A model generated the notes under the pieces. The model did no database searches and was not told the DNA's origin. It saw nothing but the letters and a program-made list of their open reading frames with translations. Both the position numbers and the translations under genes were made by a program. Positions 26,156 to 42,450 of a stretch of 64,000 bases of DNA are shown here, piece by piece. Position 1 is the stretch's first letter, and every line of letters starts with the position of its first letter. The DNA is taken from the sequence record OL960577.1; one strand, 5' to 3'. Source of the DNA: Escherichia phage vB_EcoM_SA35RD.

Positions 26156-26185
26156 AAAAAGCCCCAACCATAAGGAAGGGGCTAG
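26156..26185 (-). terminator. rho-independent terminator, copy 1 of a repeated hairpin element
   Basis: Minus strand GCCCC-TTCCTTATGGTT-GGGGC followed by TTTT. Confidence 0.55.
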
Positions 26186-26189
26186 TAAA

Positions 26190-26492
26190 TTAGATAGATG
26201 TAGGCTCTAATTTTATTTTCATGAACTCGGCAAATTGTCTGGCAGTTTTTATGCCTTGTTCATGGCATTCAAATGCATCATCACAGGGGCTATTTTTGTA
26301 ATGCTTTGCCATATACTTATAGAATTTTTCAGAATTCTCGACATTTTGAATTTCAAACAAAGTATATACGTTTTTAATCCCTGATTCCATAAAGTTATCA
26401 AAATATGGGTCGGTGTACGCAGTACCAACGATAGGAGTTGTTGCTGCAAAAAACCCCAGCATCGCCATGACAGCTATCGCTCTTAAGGCCAT
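26190..26492 (-). CDS. rI: lysis-inhibition protein rI-like
   Basis: 100 aa; hydrophobic N-terminus; resembles T4 RI as I recall it; position next to tk. Confidence 0.6.
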   Translation of the reverse strand: MALRAIAVMAMLGFFAATTPIVGTAYTDPYFDNFMESGIKNVYTLFEIQNVENSEKFYKYMAKHYKNSPCDDAFECHEQGIKTARQFAEFMKIKLEPTSI

Positions 26493-26504
26493 ATAGGCCT
26501 CCTG

Positions 26505-26717
26505 TTAATTTTGACCAGTATTTATTTTTCGCCTTTGGACGGCCTTAACATCTGTGAGGTATTTTTCCAGCTTGCGCTTGCGTGTATAATCAGCTTTAGA
26601 ACCAGTTTGACGGATATCCTCGTTTAAATGAGAAATAGAATGTCCTAATTCTCTTCGGATTTCATCCAATTGGGTTACAGTAAGATTACGAAGTTGTCTT
26701 TCGTTTAATTGCTGCAT
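26505..26717 (-). CDS. hypothetical protein (70 aa)
   Basis: Track ORF; late promoter immediately upstream. Confidence 0.45.
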
Positions 26718-26741
26718 ATATACCTCTTGGTTAGATATTAG

Positions 26742-26749
26742 TATTTATA
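26742..26749 (-). promoter_or_regulatory. late promoter TATAAATA
   Basis: Forward tatttata, about 25 nt upstream of ORF start at 26717. Confidence 0.5.
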
Positions 26750-27326
26750 ACAACCCTGTCAAATCATTCCAATGCTTCCGGCATAATGACACGTATCTAT
26801 CGGTATCACCAATTTCAATTTGACTGCCATCTGTAATTGGAAGTCCGTCTTCCGTGACTCTAGCTACCATTGTGGCCTTTTTACCACAATGACAGACACC
26901 TTTAAGTTCAACAAGCTTATCGGCAATAGCCATTAATGCTTGAGAACCTTCAAATAGATTACCTTTAAAATCTGTTCGTAGTCCATATGCCATTACCGGC
27001 ACATTGTATACGTCAACAATACGACTAAGTTGATACACCTTTTCAGTAGTTAAGAACTGAGCTTCGTCAACAAATACACAATGAATATCCTTTTGTGCTG
27101 CAGCCCATTTATAGAATTCAAAGATATCCATGTCTTTTGTAATTATATTGGCATCCTGACGAATACCAATACGAGAGACTATTTCACCTTTTGAATCGCG
27201 AGTATCAATAGCCGGTTTAAGAACTAATACACCCATGCCACGTTCTTTATAGTTGTGTGCGGCAGTAAGTAATGAAGCAGACTTACCAGCGTTCATAGCG
27301 GCATATGTAAAAATTAAACTAGCCAT
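26745..27326 (-). CDS. tk: thymidine kinase
   Basis: 193 aa; P-loop YAAMNAGKSASLL and C-terminal Zn-binding CHCGKKATM...CRKHW. Confidence 0.9.
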   Translation of the reverse strand: MASLIFTYAAMNAGKSASLLTAAHNYKERGMGVLVLKPAIDTRDSKGEIVSRIGIRQDANIITKDMDIFEFYKWAAAQKDIHCVFVDEAQFLTTEKVYQLSRIVDVYNVPVMAYGLRTDFKGNLFEGSQALMAIADKLVELKGVCHCGKKATMVARVTEDGLPITDGSQIEIGDTDRYVSLCRKHWNDLTGLL

Positions 27327-27335
27327 AAGAGTCCC

Positions 27336-27518
27336 TTATAGTGAATTCACGTAGTCAATGAGTTCTTGTTCTTTCCTGTCAAATGATTCCATCAATGCGT
27401 GATATTCTTCATCTGTTAAAGGAGCATATTCATCGTACGCATTGGTGGCTGCTTGTTCATCCAATAGGTCATGGATAAGTTCGAACAGTTTAGCTTTCTC
27501 TTCTTTAGTTAATTTCAT
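27336..27518 (-). CDS. hypothetical acidic protein (60 aa)
   Basis: Track ORF. Confidence 0.4.
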   Translation of the reverse strand: MKLTKEEKAKLFELIHDLLDEQAATNAYDEYAPLTDEEYHALMESFDRKEQELIDYVNSL

Positions 27519-27742
27519 TTAGGTTCACCTTCTTTAACGAAATCTGGGTAAGGGTAAAATCCTGAGTAAAACCCTTCACCTTTATGATTGCTACAACCTT
27601 TGTTCGAACAGTAACACCAATAATCAAAATCACAAGCCATTTCGTCATTGCATAAAGCAAAAACTACAGGCCATTCGCATTTTTCGCATTTAGCACCTGT
27701 AAGAATTTTTGTTTGACTCATAGCCATGTCACCTTTAAGCAA
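27515..27742 (-). CDS. hypothetical Cys-rich protein (75 aa)
   Basis: Multiple Cys/CxxC pairs. Confidence 0.4.
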   Translation of the reverse strand: MLKGDMAMSQTKILTGAKCEKCEWPVVFALCNDEMACDFDYWCYCSNKGCSNHKGEGFYSGFYPYPDFVKEGEPK

Positions 27743-27945
27743 TATTCTTCTACATGTTGTTTACGGCCTTTCTTATCAATAAAGGTATATTCAACGAATG
27801 TTCCGATGTAGTCTTTATCTACATCATGTGGACTATTAATTGGGCATTTGGTACGACAAATGCGTTCCCATTGACGAATAATTACTGCCTTATTCTTTGG
27901 GTCATATGGATGTGGATAATGTATATTCATAATAACGGTTCCCAA
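27718..27945 (-). CDS. hypothetical protein (75 aa)
   Basis: Track ORF. Confidence 0.4.
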   Translation of the reverse strand: MGTVIMNIHYPHPYDPKNKAVIIRQWERICRTKCPINSPHDVDKDYIGTFVEYTFIDKKGRKQHVEEYCLKVTWL

Positions 27946-28424
27946 TCAACAATCACAATTTCTAGTTTAGTAGAATACGTATCTAAAATCTCTTCGATGA
28001 CATCCCAGTTTCCACCACCAATACCTGCACCAATTCTTGGCATATAAATTACAGGCTTTATTATCTTATTCTTTCCGAATTCATTTAATTCTATTATACA
28101 ATTCATTAAAGCATAGTACTCAAAATTAGGTCCCGGCTCAAACTGTGTATAAAGATTAAAGCAATAAGCTTTATGGGTCTTAAAATATTTTTCATAAACC
28201 GAATAAGTCCCGAGTTTAGACTCGTCTCCGAATTCGGTTTGAAGTTTATCGGCTTCCAGAATTTTTGGATAAGCCTTTGCTAATTGTCCTGCCACACCGG
28301 CGCCCATTGTATGAAAACAATTACACCCATGAGCAATATTATTACCTTTAGAAAACAGGGCGACAATATCGCCCTTGATGTAGTTTTTAATCACTTGCTG
28401 CAAGTCCTCTATTATAAGAGTCAA
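27927..28424 (-). CDS. hypothetical protein (165 aa), possibly macro-domain-like
   Basis: NIAHGCNCFHTMGAGVAGQL loosely resembles macro-domain N-x-A...G-G-V motif; weak. Confidence 0.35.
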   Translation of the reverse strand: MTLIIEDLQQVIKNYIKGDIVALFSKGNNIAHGCNCFHTMGAGVAGQLAKAYPKILEADKLQTEFGDESKLGTYSVYEKYFKTHKAYCFNLYTQFEPGPNFEYYALMNCIIELNEFGKNKIIKPVIYMPRIGAGIGGGNWDVIEEILDTYSTKLEIVIVDWEPLL

Positions 28425-28734
28425 CTAGACGGTCCACCATAGAATTGCATGCTGCCTTATCTTTAGGTTCCGCCACCGAGCATTCTAATATTTGCCATTT
28501 TTTATAGTATCTTTTAATTAAGGTAGACGCCTTGAACCTACTAGACGCCCCATCTTTTTCTCCGTCTTTATACGCGTATAACAATTTTTGTGAAAAATCT
28601 ACTTTACACTCTTGACTTTTACCACAATAATCAGACGCCGTTCTGTTTGTATACTCCGTTACATCAGTATATGTAGTATTAGCAAGAGCGTTAAATGAAA
28701 CCAAGCTAACTATTAAAGCCAACATTTTGGTCAT
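28387..28734 (-). CDS. secreted/periplasmic protein (115 aa)
   Basis: Signal-peptide-like MTKMLALIVSLVSFNALA; four Cys. Confidence 0.5.
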   Translation of the reverse strand: MTKMLALIVSLVSFNALANTTYTDVTEYTNRTASDYCGKSQECKVDFSQKLLYAYKDGEKDGASSRFKASTLIKRYYKKWQILECSVAEPKDKAACNSMVDRLVDSYNRGLAASD

Positions 28735-29273
28735 TCTTTTATTTCCAGTAGTTTATTTGATTTAAGGTAATTAGCCTTTTCTAGGACTTCAGAAGCATAT
28801 TTACTTCCAGCACTTGTCTTCCATCCCGCATTATATGAGGATATAGCTTTTCTTATATCCCCGTTATGTATATTTAACCAATAAGAAAATTCGATATAAG
28901 CCCATCTGGCTGAATTAGACCGCTTAGATAGCATTTTCTTAATTTGGGCATCAGTCATATTATAACCAAGCTGGTTAATTCTTGCCCTCATTGTTGGTAG
29001 ATAATTTTGGAACATTCCATACGCATGGTGACCTTTCTTATCTTTAAGATTAATACCGGCAGATGATTCTTGCCATAGTATTGCGGCCATTATGTATCCA
29101 AGTCCTTTCTTATGCATATTTTCATGCGTTTTAAATTTTCCGTCCTTAGAAAACTGTTCCCCAAACTGATAAGCATAATTCAAGTTATCGAGTTGGACAT
29201 TACTAAAAGTATGCTCGGAGCTATGTGCTGATAATGAAAGAGCAAATAGACCAGCGAGTAGTGCTTTTCTCAT
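28731..29273 (-). CDS. secreted lytic-transglycosylase-like protein (180 aa)
   Basis: Signal peptide; WQESSAG...YGMFQ resembles SLT-domain ES...GLMQ catalytic motif. Confidence 0.5.
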   Translation of the reverse strand: MRKALLAGLFALSLSAHSSEHTFSNVQLDNLNYAYQFGEQFSKDGKFKTHENMHKKGLGYIMAAILWQESSAGINLKDKKGHHAYGMFQNYLPTMRARINQLGYNMTDAQIKKMLSKRSNSARWAYIEFSYWLNIHNGDIRKAISSYNAGWKTSAGSKYASEVLEKANYLKSNKLLEIKE

Positions 29274-29281
29274 GTTTACCT

Positions 29282-29740
29282 CTAGATTTTAATCACTGCT
29301 TTAGAAGCTTTTCCTGGTAGTCGTTTACTGTTAATAATAGCCATTCTACATTGAAGAGTCTTCATTTTGAATGTCGGATTTTCGCGACAAACTGTAAGTC
29401 CTAACCAAAGATTTCCGTCAGTTATTTCTAAACGGCCTGGACGATACTCGACACCTTCGACAAAATCTTCATCAACATCTGGACGTGCCGGCATTGATAA
29501 AAATTCTGCAACTTCTTTAACGTGATTTTTTACTTTATGAAATAATTCAAAAACGTAATTCTCATCTATTTCTCTCTGGATGGCACGATCTAAGAGATGT
29601 TGAGAATACTTGATATGAAAGCCTGGTAGTCCAAGAGACTTTGCAGCATCTTTTATACCGGCATTTATTTTGCGGAACTCCGTTTCAAAGATTCGACGGA
29701 GTTTATTACGACGGATAAAAACGTCTGAATTGATAGTCAT
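29282..29740 (-). CDS. regB: RegB endoribonuclease
   Basis: 152 aa; MTINSDVFIRRNKLRR...YSQHLLDRAIQREIDE...RLPGKASKAVIK matches T4 RegB. Confidence 0.85.
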   Translation of the reverse strand: MTINSDVFIRRNKLRRIFETEFRKINAGIKDAAKSLGLPGFHIKYSQHLLDRAIQREIDENYVFELFHKVKNHVKEVAEFLSMPARPDVDEDFVEGVEYRPGRLEITDGNLWLGLTVCRENPTFKMKTLQCRMAIINSKRLPGKASKAVIKI

Positions 29741-29768
29741 TTTGATTTCTCCTCTAGTTGACAGGTCT

Positions 29769-29797
29769 ATAGTAACACAACTAGAGGAGAAGTAAAC
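29769..29797 (-). promoter_or_regulatory. early promoter cassette (-35 GTTTAC, 17 nt, -10 TACTAT) upstream of regB
   Basis: Read directly. Confidence 0.5.
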
Positions 29798-29801
29798 TAC
29801 T

Positions 29802-30017
29802 TTATTGATAAAATGGAGTTAAAGCCCAAGATTCTTTAGATACTATATTGGCGAAATGCCTCATCTCTTCGATTTGGCGACGACGTTGGTCAGCATAGTC
29901 TTCTTCGCCTTCTTCCTTACAATCTTCAAGGTCTTCTTCAAGATACTTTAAGTATTCACTACAAATTTTGTTGACCTTTTCTTGGAAGTCCAATAACCCA
30001 GTAATAGTAGAAGCCAT
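29802..30017 (-). CDS. hypothetical acidic protein (about 71 aa)
   Basis: Track ORF 29802..30059 trimmed. Confidence 0.4.
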   Translation of the reverse strand: MASTITGLLDFQEKVNKICSEYLKYLEEDLEDCKEEGEEDYADQRRRQIEEMRHFANIVSKESWALTPFYQ

Positions 30018-30283
30018 TAGTATTTTTCCTCGGGTCGAAATACTGCACGACATGCCCACATGCTGGCTTCTTTTAGATGTTGCTTAGCATACTTAAGAGC
30101 CTGCACTGCATCCATATCTTCTTTGGTTTGTTGCTCTGTTTCATTTTCTTTCAAGATATATGCTTCTTCAATCAGAGCATCAAACATCAATCCAAGACGG
30201 ACTTCTGCATCTTTAATAGCGTTCACTTTACTGATTTTATCATCGGTATGCGGTTTGTAGCCTTTGATGTCTTCAATCGACAT
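30017..30283 (-). CDS. hypothetical protein (about 88 aa)
   Basis: Track ORF 30017..30451 trimmed to MSIEDIKGYK. Confidence 0.4.
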   Translation of the reverse strand: MSIEDIKGYKPHTDDKISKVNAIKDAEVRLGLMFDALIEEAYILKENETEQQTKEDMDAVQALKYAKQHLKEASMWACRAVFRPEEKY

Positions 30284-30497
30284 AAGGAATTTCCTCATCG
30301 GTGGCAAGGTCATATTCGACCAATTGGATAGGCTCATTAATACCATATCCACGTACAGTGATATCAGTTGTCGGATAGTTTCCAGTAATATCACCCATTC
30401 TAAATGCTTCAGTGAATGATTGCTCGCCTGAGCAACTAAACCAGGCGGCAAAACATTTTAAAACATCTTCAGACCCGTCTATAATCAATTTAGCCAT
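30273..30497 (-). CDS. hypothetical protein (74 aa)
   Basis: Track ORF. Confidence 0.45.
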   Translation of the reverse strand: MAKLIIDGSEDVLKCFAAWFSCSGEQSFTEAFRMGDITGNYPTTDITVRGYGINEPIQLVEYDLATDEEIPYVD

Positions 30498-30859
30498 TAT
30501 AGACTCTCAGTAAAGGTACGAGCGATAACGTCGCGCTGCTGTTCTGGAGTCAGAGAGTTAAAGCGAACTGCATAACCGGATACACGAATGGTCAGCTGAG
30601 GATATTTTTCCGGATGCTTAACTGCATCTTCCAGAGTTTCACGACGCAGAACGTTAACGTTCAGGTGTTGACCACCTTCAATTTTAACTTTAGGTTGATG
30701 TTCAATTTCAATTTCACGGGCGTTAAGACCGTAGAAAATTTCCGGGTCTACAATAGCGTCTTCTTTAAAAGTCTTAGAGACAATAATCCGGGCTTGAGTA
30801 CAGTCTTCAAAATAAATAGTGCCTTTGTGTGTGCCTTCAAGAATTTGATATGCTTTCAT
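30497..30859 (-). CDS. autonomous glycyl-radical cofactor (GrcA/YfiD-like)
   Basis: C-terminal [60 protein letters not shown] is the PFL-type glycyl radical domain. Confidence 0.8.
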
Positions 30860-30865
30860 ATAACC

Positions 30866-31174
30866 TCAATTAGAAAATAAATTTATCCAAGTTTTTTCTT
30901 TAATCAAAAATGGGTCGGAATTAAACGCCATTAAACTTTGAGTGATTAATCCCTTAAATGGCCCATCAATAAATTCCATTTTGAAATGCGGAATACTAGT
31001 CATCAACCGTGCATTAGGAGCAGTACAAAGAACCTGCTGCCCTGCGAACGGACCTTTAGTCAAACGATATCGTTTAGGTTTAAAATGGTAAATCTCGTAA
31101 TTTTCTACAAGGGCCCTTTTATTGCATACTGGACTGTTATAACAATACTCAAAAACTTCAATAGTGGTCATCAT
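30866..31174 (-). CDS. hypothetical protein (102 aa)
   Basis: Track ORF; stop overlaps upstream gene start. Confidence 0.45.
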   Translation of the reverse strand: MMTTIEVFEYCYNSPVCNKRALVENYEIYHFKPKRYRLTKGPFAGQQVLCTAPNARLMTSIPHFKMEFIDGPFKGLITQSLMAFNSDPFLIKEKTWINLFSN

Positions 31175-31710
31175 TGCATTCCAATCACAAAAAATTGAGG
31201 ACGAGCATTACTGCCGATGCAATATTTGCTTTTGCAGCAGTGCTGTACTGTTTTAATGTGGACATTGTAAATCTTATCCATATCAGGAGCTTTAATAGGC
31301 TCGTCAATTATATACAGAATACGAGAAAGCGTTAATCCACGGAATTTAGAACCTTCATTGCCAATAAAACTACGAACAGAATCAGTAAATAAACGGAATC
31401 GAATATCGTCGCTAGAATAACGAGAAAATTCTTTTTCAATGTTGCCAGCAGAAATTTTAGCATAAGCTGAAGTATTAGAAAGAACAATAACCGTTCCACC
31501 ATCATACAGCCAATTAGCAGCAAAGTTAGTCACAGCAATTGATTTACCTGATTGTCGGCCGCCGTCTAAACGAAGTGTACAGTACTGCTTGAGTACGTCT
31601 TCAAATGGTGGGGCATAACCGTTCTTACAAATTTCTTCTACTCTAGCATCAGAATGGTGTGTAAAAGCATTCATCAGGGATAGATAAGGTCCAGTTAAAA
31701 ATGTTCTCAT
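31171..31710 (-). CDS. small P-loop NTPase-like protein (179 aa)
   Basis: Walker A DGGRQSGKS, Walker B-like ILYIIDEP. Confidence 0.5.
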   Translation of the reverse strand: MRTFLTGPYLSLMNAFTHHSDARVEEICKNGYAPPFEDVLKQYCTLRLDGGRQSGKSIAVTNFAANWLYDGGTVIVLSNTSAYAKISAGNIEKEFSRYSSDDIRFRLFTDSVRSFIGNEGSKFRGLTLSRILYIIDEPIKAPDMDKIYNVHIKTVQHCCKSKYCIGSNARPQFFVIGMQ

Positions 31711-31823
31711 TTAGTTTCTCTTTTAGGTTGGGCCATTCCGTGGCGCATGAATTGTCCATTTCTGTATTTACCCCTCCAAGTAATTATGAATATACTATCA
31801 CAATTCTAGGAGAAAGTAAACTG

Positions 31824-32126
31824 TTATTTACCTTTAATTACTTTAGCTGCTTCGATAGCCGCTTGCTGAAGGTCATCCATAGACATACCGAATTTAGAAG
31901 CAAAGTTATCAATTTTCTTTTCGACAGCATTCAAAGGCTTGGCCTGTTTACCTTCATTAGCGCCAGGAAGAGCGAGAATACGCTCTTTGTCAATATAAAG
32001 GCTTACAAGTTTCTTACGGTCTTTATCGGACAAATCATGAAATGAATGGGCCTTTTTATTTATAGCGGCTTCTAATTTACCTGCACTCACTCGAGCTTCA
32101 GTAATAAATTCTTGATATGTTTTCAT
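31824..32126 (-). CDS. internal (capsid-targeted) protein, IPII-like
   Basis: N-terminal capsid targeting sequence MKTYQEFITE; 100 aa. Confidence 0.65.
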   Translation of the reverse strand: MKTYQEFITEARVSAGKLEAAINKKAHSFHDLSDKDRKKLVSLYIDKERILALPGANEGKQAKPLNAVEKKIDNFASKFGMSMDDLQQAAIEAAKVIKGK

Positions 32127-32151
32127 TTTGTTCCTATTGTTTTAATTTATG

Positions 32152-32466
32152 TTATTCTTTAGGGAAGTTTTTAGAGTATGCATCATAAAGTTTATTACCA
32201 ATACGGCGGAAGACTTTAGCTGCAAAACGGTTTTCAGGGTTTTTAATCATGATTTGCATCATGTAAGTTCCTGCATCCGAAAGAGCTTCTTCATAGTACC
32301 CATTAATTTCTTTAAGAGTCCTACGTTTACCACCAGGACCATCAACAGTAATTTTCCATTTACCTGTAGAAGTGCGGCTCGGTGGCTCAACTTGTTCAAT
32401 CCAAATATAACCACCTTCAACGCGTTGGTTGGCGGATTCTGCAATAAATTCTTTATACGTTTTCAT
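32152..32466 (-). CDS. internal (capsid-targeted) protein
   Basis: N-terminal MKTYKEFIAE; 104 aa. Confidence 0.6.
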   Translation of the reverse strand: MKTYKEFIAESANQRVEGGYIWIEQVEPPSRTSTGKWKITVDGPGGKRRTLKEINGYYEEALSDAGTYMMQIMIKNPENRFAAKVFRRIGNKLYDAYSKNFPKE

Positions 32467-32529
32467 TTTTGTTTCCTTGTTTGTTTTGATAGAGTAATTA
32501 TACCATATTAATACTTAAGCGTAAACAAT

Positions 32530-32790
32530 TTAAGCTTTACCGCCAGAAATAATTCCGAAGTTGTTAAAATCGTATCCAATATCGTCAACATCTACTTTAG
32601 GACTTGCTGCAACATAAGCAATTTCACTACGTTTTGCATAGGTGTTGATTTCTTTACCATCGCCACCTAAGAAAGAATACCCATTACGTTTTAATGAGCC
32701 AAAGTCTTCCGCATCACCAATGAAAGCTTTAACTTTAAATTTGGGGTCTTTGGCATCTGATTCAGCGATAAATTCTTGATACATTTTCAT
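32530..32790 (-). CDS. internal (capsid-targeted) protein
   Basis: N-terminal MKMYQEFIAE; 86 aa. Confidence 0.6.
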   Translation of the reverse strand: MKMYQEFIAESDAKDPKFKVKAFIGDAEDFGSLKRNGYSFLGGDGKEINTYAKRSEIAYVAASPKVDVDDIGYDFNNFGIISGGKA

Positions 32791-32796
32791 TTTTCC

Positions 32797-33210: not shown

Positions 33211-33237
33211 AATTTCCTCCAAGTAGTTGATGAATGT

Positions 33238-33267
33238 ATAGTATCAAAACCCTTGGAGGAAGTAAAC
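33238..33267 (-). promoter_or_regulatory. early promoter cassette (-35 GTTTAC, -10 TACTAT) upstream of denV
   Basis: Read directly. Confidence 0.45.
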
Positions 33268-33268
33268 A

Positions 33269-34528: not shown

Positions 34529-34769
34529 CTCGGTCCCATGATTTGGCCATTAATTCGGACATAAATTCTTCAATGCGCGTTTCTTTAGATGGACTTTCAC
34601 TATTAGAGACCGCAAGTTTGTAATCTGCAATAGGACAGAACATATCAAGATCCGTATTAAGGTCGTCTTTGATTTTTTCTTCTGACACATCTTTATCGTA
34701 TGTGTACAGATAACTATCACATGATTCTGATTTAATGTAAATTGCTATACTCATCTCAAATTCCTGCAT
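34518..34769 (-). CDS. hypothetical acidic protein (83 aa)
   Basis: Track ORF. Confidence 0.45.
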   Translation of the reverse strand: MQEFEMSIAIYIKSESCDSYLYTYDKDVSEEKIKDDLNTDLDMFCPIADYKLAVSNSESPSKETRIEEFMSELMAKSWDRDDE

Positions 34770-35242: not shown

Positions 35243-35928
35243 TACCAGCCTTCCATAGGGAATTCCAGATAAACTTGGGCATTGACGCGAATTTCATTGG
35301 TAATCTTTTTAACTCGGTCTGTATTACGAGATACACGTCCGAACCAACGCCATCCATTACTAATTGCACGAGAACCAGTGTGCCATGTTTGCCAATCAAA
35401 CTGAAGAAGAGTACGGTCTGGAGCTTCCCATTTCTCTAGTTCGCCTTTTTCGATTTTTTCGAGGACTTCTTTGTGCCACTGGCGATAGATAAGTTCGCCA
35501 TCAGGAATCTGACTGAACTCTGCAGTTCCTGTTGCAAAATGAGTAGGACACACATCAGCGTTAACAAGACCAAGAATATGTTCAGACAAATAGCGAGGAT
35601 TGTCATAGTCAGGTTGTCCTGCAGTAATAAAATGTTGACCAACCGGAATATCCGGGCGTGGTACGTCATCATGGTGATAACCTGGGATAGCAGGATACCA
35701 ACCAGGCATCAGCATGTGGACTCGTGAATCAAATACAACCTGGTCGGTGTTCCAATCATCTGGCAAGTTCATAATGAAAGAGCGAGTAATAGGACCGCCG
35801 TTATTATAAGCAAATTCTAAACTACAGTTGAAGAACATAGGCTCGTTCTTGATTTTATCATTAGAAATACCGCCGGCAAAACCACCTACTGCACGAGCTT
35901 GACTATTAAACACTTTAGAACTATTCAT
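35242..35928 (-). CDS. hypothetical protein (228 aa)
   Basis: Track ORF; Trp/His-rich. Confidence 0.5.
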   Translation of the reverse strand: MNSSKVFNSQARAVGGFAGGISNDKIKNEPMFFNCSLEFAYNNGGPITRSFIMNLPDDWNTDQVVFDSRVHMLMPGWYPAIPGYHHDDVPRPDIPVGQHFITAGQPDYDNPRYLSEHILGLVNADVCPTHFATGTAEFSQIPDGELIYRQWHKEVLEKIEKGELEKWEAPDRTLLQFDWQTWHTGSRAISNGWRWFGRVSRNTDRVKKITNEIRVNAQVYLEFPMEGW

Positions 35929-35929
35929 A

Positions 35930-36235
35930 TTATTTTCCTCGACATTCTTTAATGAAATTTTCTAGATTGGTAGATTCAATAGCTTTTTTACGAGCTTCTG
36001 CGTGTTCTTCTTCGGACAATTTACGTTTATAATTGACCCAGACATTATGGTCGAAACCAGTCGTGGCATATAATAACAATGCTCCAACGAATAGCAAAAA
36101 CGGCGATAAGAATACAAAACCAGGAACACCATCCATATCGTAAGCCTTTTGTAATACTGCAACAGAAAGAGTTGCGTAAAAAGGTGATGCAAGTATTGTT
36201 AAAAGACCAATTCGATTGGTTTCTGTTAATTTCAT
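35930..36235 (-). CDS. hypothetical membrane protein (101 aa), C-terminal ENFIKECR tail
   Basis: Two hydrophobic spans. Confidence 0.5.
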   Translation of the reverse strand: MKLTETNRIGLLTILASPFYATLSVAVLQKAYDMDGVPGFVFLSPFLLFVGALLLYATTGFDHNVWVNYKRKLSEEEHAEARKKAIESTNLENFIKECRGK

Positions 36236-36266
36236 AATATTCTCCTCATGTTTTAATAGGACTACT

Positions 36267-36296
36267 ACTATAACATAGTCCTATCAGTTTGTACAC
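36267..36296 (-). promoter_or_regulatory. early promoter cassette (-35 GTGTAC, -10 TATAGT) with TAGGACTA inverted repeat
   Basis: Read directly. Confidence 0.5.
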
Positions 36297-36497
36297 TTAT
36301 TTTGACATTTCTTCGATGTCACGACGATACCCATCACGAACTTCACGAAGAGCTTCAAGGCCACACATAGGCTCGATACCAGTAATGTGAACTTGATTAA
36401 TCTGATACTCTACATCTTCTAACTGAGCGAAAACATAACGACGTTCTGCTGCACAACCAGGTTTAGCTTTACCGAAACGTTTATTCAAAGTAGTCAT
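36297..36497 (-). CDS. hypothetical protein (about 66 aa)
   Basis: Track ORF 36297..36515 uses GTG; ATG at 36497 follows GGAGAT RBS. Confidence 0.45.
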   Translation of the reverse strand: MTTLNKRFGKAKPGCAAERRYVFAQLEDVEYQINQVHITGIEPMCGLEALREVRDGYRRDIEEMSK

Positions 36498-36535
36498 TTT
36501 TATATCTCCATTCACTCATTTGTTTTGATAGGTCT

Positions 36536-36565
36536 ATAGTATCAACAACTACAGACCTTGTAAAC
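36536..36565 (-). promoter_or_regulatory. early promoter cassette (-35 GTTTAC, -10 TACTAT)
   Basis: Read directly. Confidence 0.5.
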
Positions 36566-36577
36566 TGTTTTGTGAAA

Positions 36578-37534
36578 TTATTTGAAAGGTTTTACCATAT
36601 GAAAGTTTTGTTTGAAACGCTTGACGTAATCGTCGTGTCCTAAGCTTTGGTACATACTTACTACTTTGCTATAATTTTCCCAAGCGAACTCACGGAACCA
36701 TCCTGATGTGATTGATGTACAGACCTTTTCAAGGGCCATCATAAAACTATCACGTGGATGGATTTTAAAGTCGTTAGGAATCTGAGAACGTTCTAATGCT
36801 AGTACACATGATTCTTCATATACACCGGCCAATTTGACCATTTCTGGTAATGATTCGAACTTCTCGCGTGAGGTCATGACTTCAGAACCATCTTTCATGT
36901 AAAATGTATAAGCCGGACGGTCTGTTAGTGCAATAGCTTCGTGAATAGTATCATGGTCATATGTATAGATGTCATCTTTAAAGAACGCACTTTTAGAAGT
37001 GTCAAGAACAGGGTGAGCATAGTTCAAGGTTTCTTTCTGGCGTTTCAGCATAATTTCAGTAAGTTCATCGTTCAGTTTAACACCTTTACCACGAAGATAC
37101 TGAATATGGTTCATAGTCTTTAAAAAGAATGGATTATTTTTCTTGAAACGATGAGACATCTTAATTGCAAGACATATCTCAGGAGTTGCCCAGTAAAACC
37201 CGTTCAAACGGTCTTTAGTCAAATTTTTCTTGGCGTATTTTAAAAGGTCATAAGAAGACGTGAAATCTTCAGGAGTGAGTTCACCGACTAATTCACGGAC
37301 ACTAGTGATTGCCGGAACAATATATGCTTCAAAATGAGTTTCGCGTCCATTATGGAAGCATTTGAAAACTTGGACATCAGGGTTATCTTGGTGAACATAT
37401 ACACCCATCATTTGATTTTTGAATGCATTCCAAGAACCTTGGTCCGCAATAAAGTCCCAATCACTATTTTTAATAGCGCTAGAATCAATAAGACCGTGAT
37501 AGTGAAGTGCACGAGAACCAATAACTAACATCAT
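36578..37534 (-). CDS. hypothetical protein (318 aa), possible nucleotidyltransferase-like N-terminus
   Basis: VIGSRALHYHGLIDSSAIKNSDWDF loosely fits GS...D-x-D; weak. Confidence 0.45.
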   Translation of the reverse strand: MMLVIGSRALHYHGLIDSSAIKNSDWDFIADQGSWNAFKNQMMGVYVHQDNPDVQVFKCFHNGRETHFEAYIVPAITSVRELVGELTPEDFTSSYDLLKYAKKNLTKDRLNGFYWATPEICLAIKMSHRFKKNNPFFLKTMNHIQYLRGKGVKLNDELTEIMLKRQKETLNYAHPVLDTSKSAFFKDDIYTYDHDTIHEAIALTDRPAYTFYMKDGSEVMTSREKFESLPEMVKLAGVYEESCVLALERSQIPNDFKIHPRDSFMMALEKVCTSITSGWFREFAWENYSKVVSMYQSLGHDDYVKRFKQNFHMVKPFK

Positions 37535-37562
37535 AATATTTTCCTCGGATTAATTCATTAAC

Positions 37563-37814
37563 TTAAATTTCACGACATGCGATATTATATTCATCCCAGA
37601 GGTCATCATGTGAAGCCTCTACCAATGGAACGATTGTACCGTTTATGTCTTCATTATAAGGGCAAATTGTACAGTGCGCATCTTCGAATCGGATGCCTTT
37701 GTGTTCAGATTTTTTATAACGCATATCGAATATCTTTGCAAACTTTTCACGAGTAATGGTTTTACCAACCACTTTGGTTCCGATACTTTCGTAATAAATC
37801 ATTGTGGACTCCAT
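37563..37814 (-). CDS. hypothetical Cys/His-containing protein (about 80 aa)
   Basis: HCTICPYNED motif; start 37814 or 37802. Confidence 0.45.
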   Translation of the reverse strand: MESTMIYYESIGTKVVGKTITREKFAKIFDMRYKKSEHKGIRFEDAHCTICPYNEDINGTIVPLVEASHDDLWDEYNIACREI

Positions 37815-37830
37815 TTGTTTTGATAGGACT

Positions 37831-37860
37831 ACTATAACATAGCCCTATCTTGTTGTAAAC
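37831..37860 (-). promoter_or_regulatory. early promoter cassette (-35 GTTTAC, -10 TATAGT)
   Basis: Read directly. Confidence 0.5.
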
Positions 37861-37864
37861 TGTT

Positions 37865-38062
37865 TTAGCAAGAATAACTAGATGATACCCAGCCTTGAAC
37901 AGTGATACTATTGTGGGATAATGAGATCGCGTCCTGGAGATTCAGACCTGCGTTATCTTCAATCCATAATGTAACTTCTTCGCGTTCTTCTGTTGCAATT
38001 TGGAACAGGTTTTCCAGAGCAGCTACTGCCGTACGTACAGCACAATCTAATTCACGAGACAT
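37865..38062 (-). CDS. hypothetical protein (65 aa), GWVSSSxxC-tail family
   Basis: Ends QGWVSSSYSC. Confidence 0.45.
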   Translation of the reverse strand: MSRELDCAVRTAVAALENLFQIATEEREEVTLWIEDNAGLNLQDAISLSHNSITVQGWVSSSYSC

Positions 38063-38071
38063 ATTGTTTCC

Positions 38072-38344
38072 TTAGCAAGTGTGAGAAGATGCGACCCAAC
38101 CACCAGTTTCGAGGCTCAGGTTGTAGTCGTATTGGTAAACGTCAGCCCATTCAGCATAGCCATTTTTTGTACAACGTTCAAGATCGGCTTTAAGATGTCC
38201 GGGTGAATGATAGGTTCCACCCATACCGTAAGCTGGATACAAGTCGAATGTTGTGTTTTGTTTATCAGCAATTTCTTTGGCAGCCTCAATAGCTGCATAG
38301 ATTTTTGCTACAGCTTCAGCCAGTTCGGTTTGTTCTTTAGACAT
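38072..38344 (-). CDS. hypothetical protein (90 aa), GWVSSSxxC-tail family
   Basis: Ends GGWVASSHTC. Confidence 0.45.
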   Translation of the reverse strand: MSKEQTELAEAVAKIYAAIEAAKEIADKQNTTFDLYPAYGMGGTYHSPGHLKADLERCTKNGYAEWADVYQYDYNLSLETGGWVASSHTC

Positions 38345-38353
38345 AATGATTCC

Positions 38354-38659
38354 TTAGCACAACGCAGAAGACGAAACCCAAGCACCTTCAGTAATAACGT
38401 AACCATTACCTTCACGCTTAACATCGCCACCATTATTTTCAATTTCATCTTTCATCCACTGGGATACGATTTCACCCTTAGGATAATAAGTACGACCGCT
38501 ACCATAATCACCTACAGAAAATGATACGGCATATTGGTCTGCGATCTTTGTTGCTTCTTCTTCGATACGTTCAGCTTGATTCAGAAGTTTATAAATTGCA
38601 TCTGAAGCGGATTTGGCATTATTAAACTCTGGTACTTTAATTTCAATAATCTTACTCAT
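38354..38659 (-). CDS. hypothetical protein (101 aa), GWVSSSxxC-tail family
   Basis: Ends EGAWVSSSALC. Confidence 0.45.
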   Translation of the reverse strand: MSKIIEIKVPEFNNAKSASDAIYKLLNQAERIEEEATKIADQYAVSFSVGDYGSGRTYYPKGEIVSQWMKDEIENNGGDVKREGNGYVITEGAWVSSSALC

Positions 38660-39015
38660 TTTCTACATTCCTTAATAAAGTTTTCGATTGTTTCATTTTC
38701 ACGTCTAGCTAGGAGTTCATTATAACTAATCATTTGAGAAGCGTAAACCTTTTTATTTTTCTTGTTATGGTTTATAAAATCGTAGTAAAAATAGACTACA
38801 GTACAAAATGATGCGATGGATGCAAAGGCTTGGGTATACCGTAAGTCCTGCCATTGGTCTGTGAATCCACCAGTGTTCCCTATAAATCCTAACACAACGC
38901 CGTCAATAAGAAATCCAACTAATCCAAAGGCAAATCCCATGCCAATACTCATAATAAAAATTAGAATGTTCTCACCAAGAGAAGGCCATACGGTTAAGAG
39001 TTGAGGCTTTTGCAT
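38656..39015 (-). CDS. hypothetical membrane protein (119 aa), C-terminal ENFIKECRK tail
   Basis: Two or three hydrophobic spans. Confidence 0.5.
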   Translation of the reverse strand: MQKPQLLTVWPSLGENILIFIMSIGMGFAFGLVGFLIDGVVLGFIGNTGGFTDQWQDLRYTQAFASIASFCTVVYFYYDFINHNKKNKKVYASQMISYNELLARRENETIENFIKECRK

Positions 39016-39419
39016 CTTATTTCCTTAACGAATTCCATAGCTTCTTCATATTCATACTTTTTAATAGCTTCATCATACTGAGCTTGGGCTTTTGCGCACT
39101 GAACTTTCCATTCTCTTAATCGGGCTCTGTGATGACGGCCTTGGTGCCAATATCCCACCCAATTAATAGGCATTAATAAAAACGGTACAATAAGTGGTGC
39201 GACGAACATTAATGAAAATGCTGCATCAGACGATATAACTTCACTAGAATCTAAAACAGCTCCTATAATCATAAAGATTAAAAATGCTAAAGCTAAAATA
39301 GGGCCAAATAGTACTTCATTTGGGATTAATTTACGCTTGTATTCATACGCCCAGGGCTTACTTGGCATGTATAGGGTTGGCTTTGACATATTCTCTACAT
39401 TCCATAATAAATTGCTCAA
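38994..39419 (-). CDS. hypothetical membrane protein (about 131-141 aa), C-terminal EFVKEIRCK tail
   Basis: Hydrophobic spans; start ambiguous (39419 or 39389). Confidence 0.45.
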   Translation of the reverse strand: MSNLLWNVENMSKPTLYMPSKPWAYEYKRKLIPNEVLFGPILALAFLIFMIIGAVLDSSEVISSDAAFSLMFVAPLIVPFLLMPINWVGYWHQGRHHRARLREWKVQCAKAQAQYDEAIKKYEYEEAMEFVKEIRCKSLNS

Positions 39420-39975
39420 GGATTAAATTGTTAGTGAAATTAGGACTAACAACCATAGTTTCATAAAGCGCATCAATAGCACTTAAAGCATCAACTCTTT
39501 TAAGCAAAGGCTTGCCTTCATACATAGTTTCAGAATCGACGATTAAAGTGAAGTAGTATTTTTTATTATTGGCCAGAACTTCTGTATCAATATAAAACAT
39601 GTTAGACCTTAAAAGCTTGTCTCTAAAGCCTACGTAATCATCTGAACGTTCACTGATATATTCCCATTCGGTGTTTAAACAACAAACAGACCACGTAGGA
39701 GCAACGAAATCAGTGAATCTAATATCATGGTCTGCAACTAGTTTAGCAATAGCTCCGATATCATGAATCATAATACCTGGGGCTAATAAAGATTTTCGGT
39801 TATTTGCATATTCAGTTGTCTCATAAGAAGACGACCAGTACCATTTACGTCCAGTTGCAACATATCGTAATGAATCAACTAAAGACGTAGGTGGATTTAC
39901 CTTATCTCGGAACTCTTCGAACATTGAGTCAATATCATTATTTTGGTTTCGCATGTTAACTCCTTTATTATCCAA
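39358..39975 (-). CDS. hypothetical protein (205 aa), C-terminal EQFIMECR motif
   Basis: Track ORF. Confidence 0.5.
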   Translation of the reverse strand: MDNKGVNMRNQNNDIDSMFEEFRDKVNPPTSLVDSLRYVATGRKWYWSSSYETTEYANNRKSLLAPGIMIHDIGAIAKLVADHDIRFTDFVAPTWSVCCLNTEWEYISERSDDYVGFRDKLLRSNMFYIDTEVLANNKKYYFTLIVDSETMYEGKPLLKRVDALSAIDALYETMVVSPNFTNNLILEQFIMECREYVKANPIHAK

Positions 39976-39996
39976 AAGGAGGACCGGGGTCCTCCG
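39973..39996 (-). terminator. terminator hairpin GGAGGACC-gg-GGTCCTCC
   Basis: Perfect 8-bp stem; T-run follows on minus strand. Confidence 0.5.
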
Positions 39997-40003
39997 TATT
40001 ATT

Positions 40004-40597
40004 TTATTTCAAAGAGTTAATATATTCTTGTACATCAGCAGAAGTGGTTTCGACACCTGCTGGAGTGCCATTGAACGTTTCAACCCGAGTCAGAGTGTCT
40101 TCGATATCAACCTTAGTCAGTGCAGCGATTTCAATTACATCATCGGCCGTAGAGATACCAAGGGCATTAGCTGCTCGAGTTTCACGAATGTATTCGAGTT
40201 TGATTGCCAGATTCTGACGAGCATCATCAAGTTCAACCACCTTACGAGCAATTTCAATTCGCATAGCGGCATACCCGTCAGCTTTTGTATTAAGTTGTTC
40301 GGCAGTTCGACGATACAGAAGACCAAGCTTAGCATGCATGGTAACATCTTGTCCTTCAGCCAGGAGCTTACGAATTTCACGTTCCTTAGAAGCGGCTTGC
40401 TTGTTCTTTTCAATAACAAGTTCGCGAATACGTTTTTCTTCATTAATAGATTTAACAGAAGCCGTTTTTAGTTCTTTGATTTGGGTAATCAACTTATCTG
40501 CAGCTGCGTTATACTGTTCTTCGACAGTCAGATTTTTAGCCATAGCAGTACCCAGTTTAGTGCGAATGAATTCAACAAGTTTCTTCAGTGTGTTCAT
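40004..40597 (-). CDS. hypothetical coiled-coil protein (about 197 aa)
   Basis: Track ORF 40004..40612 uses TTG; ATG at 40597 follows AGGT RBS; architecture vaguely PspA-like. Confidence 0.5.
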
Positions 40598-40639
40598 ATT
40601 ATTACCTTTCAATTGGTGGTTTATTATCCAACGAGAGCA

Positions 40640-40668
40640 TTATACTCTGCTCTCAAGAGTTTGTACAC
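40640..40668 (-). promoter_or_regulatory. early promoter cassette (-35 TGTACA, 17 nt, -10 TATAAT) with GAGAGC/GCTCTC inverted repeat
   Basis: Near-duplicate of 10055..10083 with compensatory A:T to C:G change. Confidence 0.5.
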
Positions 40669-40919
40669 TTATTTGTACGAATTAATAATCTCTTCCATTT
40701 TATCCAGAACATGGATATCGATTATACGAGGAAGTGCCGAAAGATTAGAACCGTCGAAAGATTTAAGGTCTTCCAAAATAATATTTTCAATGGCCTTTAA
40801 AGCTTCCGCAGATTCTGATGCAGAATTAAATTCAGGAATTTCTCCAAAAAGACGTAAGAATGAACCAAAGTATTCTGCGGCGATTTCTTTAGCTTGTTCG
40901 ATATCAGACTTAAACATTT
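40669..40919 (-). CDS. hypothetical acidic protein (about 83 aa)
   Basis: Track ORF 40669..40950; start set to MFKSD after GAGGAAA RBS. Confidence 0.45.
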
Positions 40920-40945
40920 TGTTTTCCTCATTTGTTGGTGGAGTA

Positions 40946-40974
40946 ATCATATCACCATCCTTGGCGTTTGTACA
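40946..40974 (-). promoter_or_regulatory. early promoter cassette (-35 TGTACA, 17 nt, -10 TATGAT) with CACCA-agga-TGG hairpin
   Basis: Read directly. Confidence 0.45.
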
Positions 40975-41202
40975 TTATTTTTTAATCAAGTTGACATAAA
41001 ATTCTGCATCTTCAGGGTGCATGCCTTCGCAGTATTCTTCAACCATGAACTTCTTAACAGCTTCATAAGGACCACTCAGATTAAGCTCAGTTGTCCAGAA
41101 CTTGGAATCTTGGACTGAATCGATATGAACTTCAGGGTGTCGGTTGCGAATAACTTCTTCGGTGTATTCATAATCAACGACATCAATACTAACTTTAGCC
41201 AT
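40975..41202 (-). CDS. hypothetical protein (75 aa)
   Basis: Track ORF. Confidence 0.45.
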   Translation of the reverse strand: MAKVSIDVVDYEYTEEVIRNRHPEVHIDSVQDSKFWTTELNLSGPYEAVKKFMVEEYCEGMHPEDAEFYVNLIKK

Positions 41203-41443
41203 TTTATTTTCCTCTTGATTTGATGTGATTACTATAACATAAACTTACTTAGATGTAAATTATTTCAACGTCACCTTTAGCTGCTTTATAACCTTCAGCC
41301 CAAGATACAACAGAGTTTTTATCCGAGGATTCAAATTCAGGCATTGGACTTTCACCAATATTCACACAGTATGTTTCTTCATTTTCATCGAACCAAATAA
41401 TTAAAGTAGTCATTTTGTTTACTCCTCTGTAGTTGATAAGTCT

Positions 41444-41472
41444 ATAGTATCACCATCCTTGGTGCTTGTACA
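41444..41472 (-). promoter_or_regulatory. early promoter cassette (-35 TGTACA, 17 nt, -10 TACTAT) with CACCA-agga-TGGTG hairpin
   Basis: Read directly; a short ORF (about 40-50 codons, roughly 41290..41413) follows. Confidence 0.45.
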
Positions 41473-41480
41473 TCATTATT

Positions 41481-41786
41481 TTATTTTTTCCAACTCAACA
41501 ACTTGTAATGTCCTTCATTCGTACGTGGTTTATCCCAAGAAATACTAATATATGATTCGCTGTCAATAGAAGTCGCCGGGTTTTTCTCTACCGTAAGACC
41601 TTCACTTTCCAGCCATTCAATAGTATTTGCGCATAAATCGGAAGAACACCTCATCGGGAACCGGCAAGATTTTTCACCTTTAGATGCTGCATCGTACATC
41701 TTTTCCAAAATACGCTTTTGCACGTTTTTAAAAATAGTTTCAGCAGATTCTTCAGATTTTTTATTCAGTTCAGTGTAAAGACTCAT
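41481..41786 (-). CDS. hypothetical protein (101 aa)
   Basis: Track ORF. Confidence 0.45.
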   Translation of the reverse strand: MSLYTELNKKSEESAETIFKNVQKRILEKMYDAASKGEKSCRFPMRCSSDLCANTIEWLESEGLTVEKNPATSIDSESYISISWDKPRTNEGHYKLLSWKK

Positions 41787-41814
41787 AACATTTTCCTCTA
41801 TGGTTGATAAGTCT

Positions 41815-41843
41815 ATAGTATCATGTCCTTAGAAGAAGTAAAC
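41815..41843 (-). promoter_or_regulatory. early promoter cassette (-35 GTTTAC, 17 nt, -10 TACTAT)
   Basis: Read directly. Confidence 0.5.
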
Positions 41844-41875
41844 ATCTTTATGAAATATTTTTATGCCCTAGATAC

Positions 41876-41905
41876 CAAAAGGCCCCAACCATAAGGAAGG
41901 GGCAT
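41876..41905 (-). terminator. rho-independent terminator, copy 2 of repeated hairpin element
   Basis: Same GCCCC...GGGGC hairpin plus T-run as 26156..26185. Confidence 0.55.
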
Positions 41906-41909
41906 TCTA

Positions 41910-42374
41910 TTATTTAATTTGTTTAGCAGACCAGATACGGTCTTTAATAAGTTTTTGGATATCTTCAACATACTCAAGGCTATGAGCGTGAGGATTATCT
42001 TTGAAGCTATGTGCTCGTGCCAGTTTCTGGCCTTCTGTTTTGATTACTAAAAGCTCTTTAAGAATTGCTTCATACTTAGAAATAATTCCTTTGGCGATAT
42101 TTTTTTCTTGAGCTGCTTTAGGGTCTGTTTTTGGCGCAGGTGCTTTACCTGTAGCTTTCTGGAACAATTCACCTGATGCAGCTAGGCTTTTAAAAACTCG
42201 GCTAACAGTATTAGCATTAGTAAAACCTTCGGCTTTAAAATCTCTAATAAAACGGAAACGTTCTTCATCAGAGGCGTCTTTGTAAGAATATTTACCTGCT
42301 TGAATTGCTGCAATCGCAGCGGCTTTTACATCTGAACTAGATTGTTCAGTCAAAAATTCAGCGTATGATTTCAT
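41910..42374 (-). CDS. internal (capsid-targeted) protein (154 aa)
   Basis: N-terminal MKSYAEFLTE capsid-targeting-like leader. Confidence 0.55.
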   Translation of the reverse strand: MKSYAEFLTEQSSSDVKAAAIAAIQAGKYSYKDASDEERFRFIRDFKAEGFTNANTVSRVFKSLAASGELFQKATGKAPAPKTDPKAAQEKNIAKGIISKYEAILKELLVIKTEGQKLARAHSFKDNPHAHSLEYVEDIQKLIKDRIWSAKQIK

Positions 42375-42420
42375 GTTGCTTTTCCTAAGTTAATTAACTT
42401 ATCTATTTATTATTATGCCA

Positions 42421-42450
42421 AAAAGCCCCGACCTTTCGGAAGGGGCTAAG
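42421..42450 (-). terminator. rho-independent terminator, copy 3 (variant loop)
   Basis: Minus strand AGCCCC-TTCCGAAAGGTC-GGGGCT then TTTT. Confidence 0.55.

Follow-up and report, generated by a model that had tools for sequence, protein, structure and literature searches.

Three near-identical hairpins on the minus strand of a 64,000-nt stretch of Escherichia phage vB_EcoM_SA35RD (record OL960577.1; this whole stretch is referred to as the window) are likely to be paralogous intrinsic (Rho-independent) terminators of early-strand transcription, their copies serving in addition as passive homology for the gain and loss of gene cassettes and for the exchange of short patches. Termination itself we infer from the anatomy of the hairpins, their placement and third-party predictions.

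Three copies of one hairpin

The 22-nt hairpin reads GCCCCUUCC-N4-GGUYGGGGC and is followed by a U-run. Its three minus-strand copies lie at 26161-26182 (copy 1), 41882-41903 (copy 2) and 42425-42446 (copy 3), within 1-4 bases of where an earlier reading of the letters alone (the sequence-only reading) had placed them. The structural pattern GCCCCNNCCNNNNGGNNGGGGC (GCCCC-NN-CC-NNNN-GG-NN-GGGGC) has exactly 3 matches in the window and 0 in shuffled window sequence, so the repeat that had been reported is real. The 26-mer AAAAGCCCCAACCATAAGGAAGGGGC occurs exactly at 26157-26182 and, with one mismatch (AAAGGCCCC) that turns the RNA tail from UUUUU into CUUUU, at 41878-41903; it has 0 matches in 100 dinucleotide-preserving shuffles of the window. 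Copies 1 and 2 have the same sequence across the whole hairpin (minus-strand RNA GCCCCUUCCUUAUGGUUGGGGC), and copy 3 (GCCCCUUCCGAAAGGUCGGGGC) differs from them at 4 of 22 positions, namely three loop bases and one base of an internal mismatch. The U-tracts are UUUUU, CUUUU and UUUUU in copies 1, 2 and 3, respectively, and the unit common to the copies, hairpin plus UUUUUGGYAU(CUA), extends over about 35-40 nt.

A scan of the window gave about 10 plausible hairpin and U-run terminators on the minus strand. The roughly 7 that are not copies of this hairpin are unrelated in sequence and each is unique, several having UUCG loops; three of a kind is therefore a real repeat and not just a common shape. 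In the complete genome of phage a20 (168,870 bp), the 22-mer scaffold is found only at the same three sites, and a fourth hairpin, located at the uvsW.1/uvsY.-2 junction, combines this interior with a GGCCC/GGGCC stem. The genome-wide search that the sequence-only reading had proposed thus yields, in this close relative, three copies and one stem variant, not the many dispersed copies of repetitive extragenic palindromic (REP) or miniature inverted-repeat transposable element families. A scan of viral contigs with the palindromic GCCCCNNCCNNNNGGNNGGGGC was too general, with unrelated GC-rich contigs among the matches listed, and serves as a rough background only.

By its matches, the window belongs to a Mosigvirus, i.e. 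an RB69-type T-even phage: the 3-kb piece around copy 1 and the 2.1-kb piece with copies 2 and 3 are best matched, at 97-98% identity, by RB69/JS09-like Mosigvirus genomes (TU01, a20, JS09), and both pieces match hundreds of T-even phage genomes. In the JS09 annotation the gene order is nrdC, mobD, rI, tk, vs, regB, denV, internal-protein genes, e, tRNAs and ipI, and all genes of this region lie on the minus strand of the window. The minus strand is hence the early strand, on which the hairpins are to be read. Comparisons below cover about a dozen genomes, with IMG/VR retrievals anchored on the rnaC 3' end, the rI protein or UvsW.1 contributing only 3-9 loci per anchor (individual loci are given as L numbers).

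Predicted fold

The sequence-only reading had described, on the minus strand, a GC stem followed by a U-run, with an unusually long conserved 12-nt loop that might have a second role. The predicted fold of each copy agrees with the stem and U-run. The loop is not borne out: in the minimum-energy and centroid predictions, an outer stem of 5-6 bp is separated by a 2x2 internal loop (U·U/U·U, but U·U/U·C in copy 3) from a 2-bp CC/GG helix that is capped by a tetraloop, and the central four bases vary among orthologs at every site. Isolated hairpins have energies of -15.0 to -16.0 kcal/mol with z-scores of -2.8 to -3.3, and the fold is unchanged in a 51-nt context.

Copy-3 orthologs retrieved through the rnaC anchor, which is unbiased as to the hairpin, have UU, GA or AG opposite UU and outer stems of GCCCC or GGCCC. 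In T4 the hairpin is fully paired, with G·U and A-U replacing the U·U of the window (-20.3 kcal/mol). Counted over all pairs, 81% of cells are paired, with compensatory change (C-G to G-C) at one pair; at the two mismatch positions, only 2 of the 11 distinct sequences are paired. The tandem U·U mismatch thus appears to be tolerated rather than required, and a second role for the loop is not supported, since these positions form Watson-Crick or wobble pairs (GA/UU, AG/UU) in T4 and relatives.

Two further ideas were considered and rejected. For a bidirectional terminator, the plus-strand form is A·A-mismatched (-13.8 kcal/mol) and lacks a U-tract; because it is weaker and without a U-run, the element is predicted to work in one direction only. 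The anti-Shine-Dalgarno likeness of CUUCCUUA (copies 1 and 2) to the 16S 3' end is lost in the GAAA-loop orthologs of the same sites. At gathering thresholds, Rfam matched only two tRNAs, with nothing for the hairpins or for rnaC and rnaD.

Placement and the probable terminator role

All three hairpins have the features of an intrinsic terminator, that is, a GC-rich stem-loop with a U-tract directly 3', in an intergenic position just past a gene or RNA on the transcribed strand. Copy 1 (GCCCCUUCC-UUAU-GGUUGGGGC; -15.8 kcal/mol) begins 7 nt past the stop codon of rI (lysis inhibition; 26190..26492, minus strand; phrog_1246, E 8e-31), and its U-tract (26160-26156) and the shared tail GGCAUCUA occupy 26148..26160. 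Copy 2 lies 6 nt past the stop codon of a 154-aa open reading frame (ORF; 41910..42374, minus strand), with its interrupted U-tract and the tail GGUAUCUA at 41869..41881. Copy 3 (GCCCCUUCC-GAAA-GGUCGGGGC) is found 52 nt past the 3' end of a homolog of T4 rnaC, and its U-tract and the start of the shared tail (GGCAU) lie at 42415..42424.

As the sequence-only reading had noted, copies 1 and 2 sit just ahead of early promoters and form terminator-then-promoter junctions. A T4-type early promoter (GTTTAC-N17-TATAGT; 26116..26144, minus strand) follows copy 1 by 17 nt, then a Shine-Dalgarno sequence and a mobD.2a-like ORF (25909-26088) that it would drive; after copy 2 the distance is 38 nt, and the promoter (41843-41815, minus strand) would drive an RB69ORF146c-like ORF (41481-41786). 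A strong hairpin with a U-run precedes only 3 of about 25 minus-strand matches to the early-promoter search pattern (GTTTAC-N17-TAYWRT), these being copy 1, copy 2 and an unrelated UUCG hairpin at 22752-22768.

Public records of relatives, annotated independently by their authors, point the same way. The copy-2 ortholog carries an ARNold terminator annotation in MK373782 and KF562341, and the copy-3 ortholog is marked as a terminator in KF562341. In the PhAPEC2 record all three hairpins of its tandem cassettes are ARNold terminators, as is copy 2 in the KAW3E185 record. The copy-2 U-tract is UUUUU in a20, KAW3E185, SF and JM17.

In the mechanism that we propose, the nascent RNA would fold into a hairpin of about -15 kcal/mol directly ahead of the U-tract, which would destabilise the RNA:DNA hybrid and release the E. 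coli RNA polymerase; the hairpin probably also shields the 3' end of the upstream RNA. Copy 3 would thereby close the tRNA-Met/tRNA-Arg/rnaD/rnaC unit, copy 2 would insulate the internal-protein-type gene from the next early unit, and copy 1 would close the tk-rI unit ahead of the early promoter of the mobD.2a-like gene.

It is unlikely, though less so than the other alternatives considered below, that the hairpins act mainly as stabilisers of RNA 3' ends or as processing barriers, the ends being made by cleavage and trimming while the polymerase mostly reads through. T4 early RNAs undergo heavy processing, the precursor of the tRNAs and rnaC is processed and has copy 3 in its 3' trailer, copy 2 has an interrupted U-tract, and an imperfect late-promoter box after copy 3 means that read-through could feed expression of the internal-protein gene. 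Against this, a hairpin with five U residues directly 3' is the canonical signature of an intrinsic terminator and ARNold calls these sites; moreover, stabiliser and terminator roles can coexist. We recommend that all three hairpins be annotated as terminators.

Copy 3 and the hairpin downstream of T4 rnaC

Upstream of copy 3 lie, in order of increasing distance, the homologs of rnaC (42499..42637; 137 of 139 positions identical to T4) and rnaD (42644..42763; 106 of 119), a small ORF, tRNA-Arg and tRNA-Met (tRNA calls spanning 43123..43279), all on the minus strand. In T4, GCCCCGACCGAAAGGTTGGGGC and TTTTTGGTATCTA likewise lie 52 nt past rnaC, at the end of the tRNA/small-RNA cluster. By its position, its GAAA tetraloop, shared with T4, and agreement at 18 of 22 bases plus the tail, copy 3 (T4 counterpart GCCCCGACCGAAAGGUUGGGGC) is orthologous to the hairpin that follows rnaC (species 1 RNA) in T4 and that reportedly is the mapped terminator of the tRNA operon. 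The T4 hairpin differs in being fully paired (GA/UU) and single, whereas copy 3 is mismatched (U·U/U·C) and, in the window, a further copy lies past an inserted gene. In T4, GCCCCGACCGAAAGGTTGGGGC-TTTTTGGTATCTAAG is followed by a spacer of about 190 nt, an early promoter and e.8; the single hairpin there has the tail GGUAUCUA, which in the window follows copy 2 and not copy 3.

The 300 nt upstream of copy 3 should be annotated as rnaC and rnaD and not as small proteins; the a20, KAW3E185 and JM17 records place small hypothetical coding sequences over them. Even in T4, rnaC and rnaD are without known function (PMC3014915). The small ORF between tRNA-Arg and rnaD (114 aa; 42760-43104, minus strand; RB69ORF150c, phrog_3355) looks like another small insertion within the tRNA/small-RNA unit: tRNA-Arg directly precedes rnaD in T4, and JM17 does not have the ORF.

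Copies 3 and 2 flank an internal-protein-type cassette

The 50 nt between copy 3 and the ATG of the 154-aa ORF (at 42374) contain UUUUUGGCAU, a late-promoter-like box, AATAAATA (42404..42411, minus strand; 7/8 match), and a Shine-Dalgarno sequence. The ORF itself belongs to phrog_2280, with a weak match of residues 1-43 to phrog_7857 (internal virion protein), and its N-terminus, MKSYAEFLTE, is of the capsid-targeting kind that characterises T-even internal-protein cassettes (MKTYQEFIAE in T4 IPII and IPIII). The T4 head review (PMC3012670) names the capsid-targeting sequence as the only conserved feature of these otherwise highly diverse proteins. We thus regard the 154-aa product, from its sequence, as an internal-protein candidate. 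Five minus-strand ORFs of the window start with MK[ST]Y.EF[IL] (45074-44787, 42374-41910, 33550-33269, 32466-32152 and 32126-31824), among them the orthologs of ipI and ipII, so that both polymorphic internal-protein loci fall within the window.

In L228, a Tequatrovirus-like contig, both flanking hairpins align to the single T4 hairpin, and the 555 bp between them, namely a perfect late-promoter box, TATAAATA, and a 157-aa homolog of the window ORF, are absent from T4. Phage SF, a Mosigvirus, has copy 3, the ORF and copy 2 and then the complete T4-like spacer and e.8. These two layouts indicate that copies 3 and 2 are direct repeats around an insertion, with the site empty (or excised) in T4. 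As far as the copy-3 U-tract, JS09 and L204 are collinear with the window, and collinearity resumes just ahead of the early promoter; in between, window positions 41850-42412 are replaced by TATAAATA, a different, 208-aa gene of the capsid-targeting type (N-terminus MYTFNEFLAE in JS09) and a different terminator, GGGGACUUCGGUCCCC. PhAPEC2 has two cassettes in tandem, each with its own terminator. A perfect TATAAATA stands right after the hairpin U-tract in JS09, L204, L226, L227 and L228.

The proposal of the sequence-only reading that the terminator marks or travels with mobile cassettes can accordingly be kept in part. At copies 3 and 2 the hairpins do mark a boundary, around a gene that T4 lacks and in whose place JS09 has another. 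What moves is an internal-protein-type gene with its own 3' terminator (a different hairpin in the JS09 alternative) and not, as had been suggested, the early-promoter cassette. Copy 1 is no indel boundary in the Mosigvirus genomes sampled. Association with indels or replacements among close relatives, which is typical of PeSL elements (promoter-early stem-loops, in which a stem-loop terminator closely precedes an early promoter with its Shine-Dalgarno sequence and ATG; Arbiol et al. 2010, PMC2839356; Comeau et al. 2014, PMC4122927), is hence found at copies 3 and 2, and copy 1 is tied only to a duplication junction in a20.

The locus is a clean, sequence-resolved illustration of the way in which small accessory genes are exchanged among T4-type phages while neighbouring transcription is left undisturbed: the swapped gene, likely an injected internal protein of the anti-defence type, would arrive with its own terminator, and the duplicated 22-nt hairpin would supply the homology for insertion and loss of the cassette, with T4 keeping the empty site.

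Proposed exchange between copies

The tetraloops differ in blocks among orthologs whose flanks are identical. At copy 1, UUAU is found in the window, OCHD01000040 and two IMG/VR contigs, UUAC in JS09, and GAAA in a20 and one IMG/VR contig. At copy 2, UUAU is found in the window, a20, APCEc01 and JM17, UUAC in KAW3E185 and SF, and GAAA in PhAPEC2. At copy 3, GAAA is found in most genomes including T4, UUAC in KAW3E185 and UUAU in JM17. GAAA and UUAU disagree at each of the four positions although the genomes are otherwise 95-98% identical, which makes single-base mutation an unlikely route, and copies 2 and 3 are mutually identical within KAW3E185, JM17 and PhAPEC2. We infer that short patches are exchanged between copies, either ectopically or between co-infecting genomes.

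T4-type phages have their own homologous recombination, which acts on homologies shorter than 50 bp (PMC2839356). In our model the copies would be passive, portable homology: recombination between flanking repeats would lead to cassette gain or loss, and short patch exchange between copies would swap whole tetraloops.

The contig OCHD01000040.1 (170,927 bp; L232/L233), the sole one to match hairpin and tail in the metagenome scan, agrees exactly with the window in the state of each copy, down to the CUUUU tail after copy 2 and the U·C in copy 3, and probably represents the same phage or one nearly identical to it.

Several points weigh against paralogous terminators that double as exchange homology. 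On the side of termination, copy 2 of the window has a weakened U-tract (CUUUU), z-scores in the 51-nt context are modest for copies 2 and 3 (-1.3 and -1.9), covariation is thin, with one two-sided pair change and most pairs invariant, and a literature search for T4 Term-seq, transcript 3'-end or termination-efficiency data found none. On the side of exchange, the loop swaps could partly be allelic exchange between co-infecting phages rather than exchange within a genome; copy 1 is collinear in all sampled Mosigvirus genomes, its boundary role resting on loop swaps and one duplication junction; and copy 3 is without the early promoter that defines a PeSL, none being found between it and the 154-aa ORF.

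Is the hairpin interior recognised?

A sequence-specific second function of the 12-nt interior, such as a protein-binding or processing site, is improbable as the reason for its conservation in place of termination. Its appeal is that the interior, UUCC...GGUU with the tandem U·U mismatch, is the same in all three copies and recurs at the uvsW.1/uvsY.-2 junction of a20, of other T-even contigs and of KP15 and RB43. The scaffold followed by UUUU is, in addition, rare in cellular genomes, with 29 matches in 596 Gb, none of them enterobacterial, which argues that it was not copied from the host; in viral contigs the exact scaffold has about 100 loci, although that scan required the UU/U interior by design and no enrichment can be read from it alone. 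However, the central four bases vary freely among orthologs, T4, L226 and L228 have GA/UU or AG/UU at the mismatch and are fully paired (-20.3 vs. -16 kcal/mol), and distant relatives use unrelated hairpins at the uvsW.1 site, as seen where UvsW.1 is only 62-64% identical. A dedicated recognition role for the interior is thus possible but unlikely.

The uvsW.1/uvsY.-2 convergent junction lies outside the window. Its hairpin has a UUCC-loop-GGUU interior, a GCCCC or GGCCC stem and a 4-7-nt loop, and was seen in a20 (17655-17677; L222), in the uvsW/uvsY region of KP15 and RB43 and in IMG/VR loci L142 and L265-L271; KP15 (Slopekvirus) and RB43 (Pseudotevenvirus) have the exact 22-mer scaffold at the junction.

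A broader version, to which we give very little weight, is that the S-UU-CC-loop-GG-UU-S' hairpin, with its tandem U·U mismatch, is more than an imperfect terminator that is tolerated, and occurs throughout the Straboviridae as an element which a conserved phage protein recognises, either in RNA or in extruded DNA. If so, that protein would target cassette exchange or RNA fate, as a phage analogue of integron attC sites, and the persistence of one interior at uvsW.1/uvsY.-2 in genera as far apart as those of RB43 and KP15, as well as its copying to T-even cassette boundaries, would be explained.

More doubtful still is a dedicated recombination system, comparable to integron attC sites or to REP elements and their RAYT transposases, that would recognise the hairpin and actively move cassettes. 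An imperfect hairpin with unpaired bases does flank a gene cassette as direct repeats, one rearrangement junction falls inside a GGGGC arm, and Arbiol et al., who cite the deletions of Mosig 1998 ending at GGGC/GCCC, speculate on a protein that recognises GGGG...CCCC stems. The copies, though, number only 3-4 per genome, alternative cassettes at the same site carry unrelated hairpins, no recombinase turned up (no search was aimed at recombinases), and the homologous recombination of the phage on short homologies would be enough (PMC2839356).

Least credible is that the copies are independent, convergent terminators with no shared ancestry or exchange, alike only in being of good terminator shape: GC stems of the GCCCC...GGGGC type are generic, a looser palindrome occurring in at least 120 unrelated viral contigs of all GC contents, but the mismatch, the inner helix and the tail GGYAUCUA on the 3' side share the identity with the stem, all of the roughly 7 remaining terminator-like hairpins on this strand of the window are unrelated in sequence, both cassette-flanking copies map to one T4 hairpin, and four-base loop blocks are common to different sites.

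Surroundings of copy 1 and other hairpins

At the T4 place analogous to copy 1, after rI.-1, an unrelated UUCG hairpin and an early promoter are found. In a20 (32372-32630; L224), a 130-bp tandem duplication comprises the early promoter and the start of the mobD.2a-like gene as far as codon 17; the junction of the duplication, GAAGAGTA|GGGGCTTTTT, falls within the 3' GGGGC arm of copy 1, and a truncated extra ORF, a20_217, is left behind. In several relatives (L136, L229, L231), about 60 bp take the place of a 330-bp small-ORF segment of the window, 25483-25811, with no hairpin at the endpoints; relatives matched at 89% coverage probably carry the same replacement.

A second family of repeated terminators, GGGGAC(C)UUCGG(G)UCCC and then UUUAGGGGG, has a member at 22752-22768 (minus strand), ahead of an early promoter at 22720. 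The same UUCG element ends the alternative internal-protein gene at the copy-2 position of JS09 (about 34635-34650; L001), with a similar upstream ...AAGTAA. At 57852-57883 on the plus strand, an unrelated UUCG terminator-like hairpin, AGGGAGCCUUCGGGCUCCCA, is followed by UUUUUGUAUCUA, a tail nearly the same as that after copies 1 and 2 and the T4 hairpin.

Comparison with known systems

PeSLs are found mainly in hyperplastic regions and lie at the ends of indels; their action as terminators has been tested, and their recombination yields excised mini-circles (PMC2839356; PMC4122927). Copies 1 and 2, as a GC stem-loop terminator followed by an early promoter, Shine-Dalgarno sequence and ATG, appear to fit this layout. 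The hairpin copies likewise lie in hyperplastic regions rich in small ORFs, the repeats flank ORFs that differ between close relatives, and the mechanism proposed for both is homologous exchange on short homology. The differences are that the repeated unit here is the hairpin with its U-tail and not the promoter, that the hairpin precedes few of the early promoters and has a handful of copies per genome rather than dozens, and that copy 3 is followed by a late-promoter-type box (AATAAATA/TATAAATA) in place of an early promoter. The pairs compared in the PeSL papers are RB49/phi1, T4/PST and KVP40/nt-1, with Mosigvirus not included.

The internal-protein loci are a further parallel, and copies 3 and 2 seem to fit that picture. 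Repoila 1994, as reported in PMC2839356, described PeSL-like sequences at two polymorphic internal-protein loci of T-even phages. As these loci are outlined in PMC2839356 and PMC3012670, they share with the present one a gene with a capsid-targeting N-terminus in the tRNA-to-e region, a late-promoter box upstream (imperfect in the window), a gene that is present, absent or replaced among relatives, and conserved non-coding cassette ends. The stem-loops differ: in the account given by Arbiol et al., those of internal-protein loci are weaker, AT-rich and without polyG, whereas the hairpin here is GC-rich. The same account (PMC2839356) notes that T4 deletions often end at GGGC/GCCC inverted repeats.

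With the extra-stable intercistronic tetraloops of T4 (C(UUCG)G and GNRA), the likeness is limited to copy 3, where GAAA is a GNRA loop closed by C-G, and to the UUCG loops of several other terminators in the window; the UUAU of copies 1 and 2 is no special tetraloop, and loop identity is evidently interchangeable. REP elements, bacterial interspersed mosaic elements and attC sites are also short, imperfect intergenic hairpin repeats that terminate or stabilise RNA or flank cassettes. Unlike these, the hairpins of the window do not occur in tens to hundreds of copies, have no associated transposase or integrase, and stand strictly at gene 3' ends on one strand.

Taken together, the arrangement is an instance of the modular shuffling at PeSLs and internal-protein loci already described for T4-type phages and no new kind of element, and it leaves the understanding of PeSL-type shuffling unchanged. 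What is specific here is that a terminator and not a promoter is repeated, that it is derived from, or shared with, the terminator of the tRNA cluster, and that T4 has the corresponding empty site.

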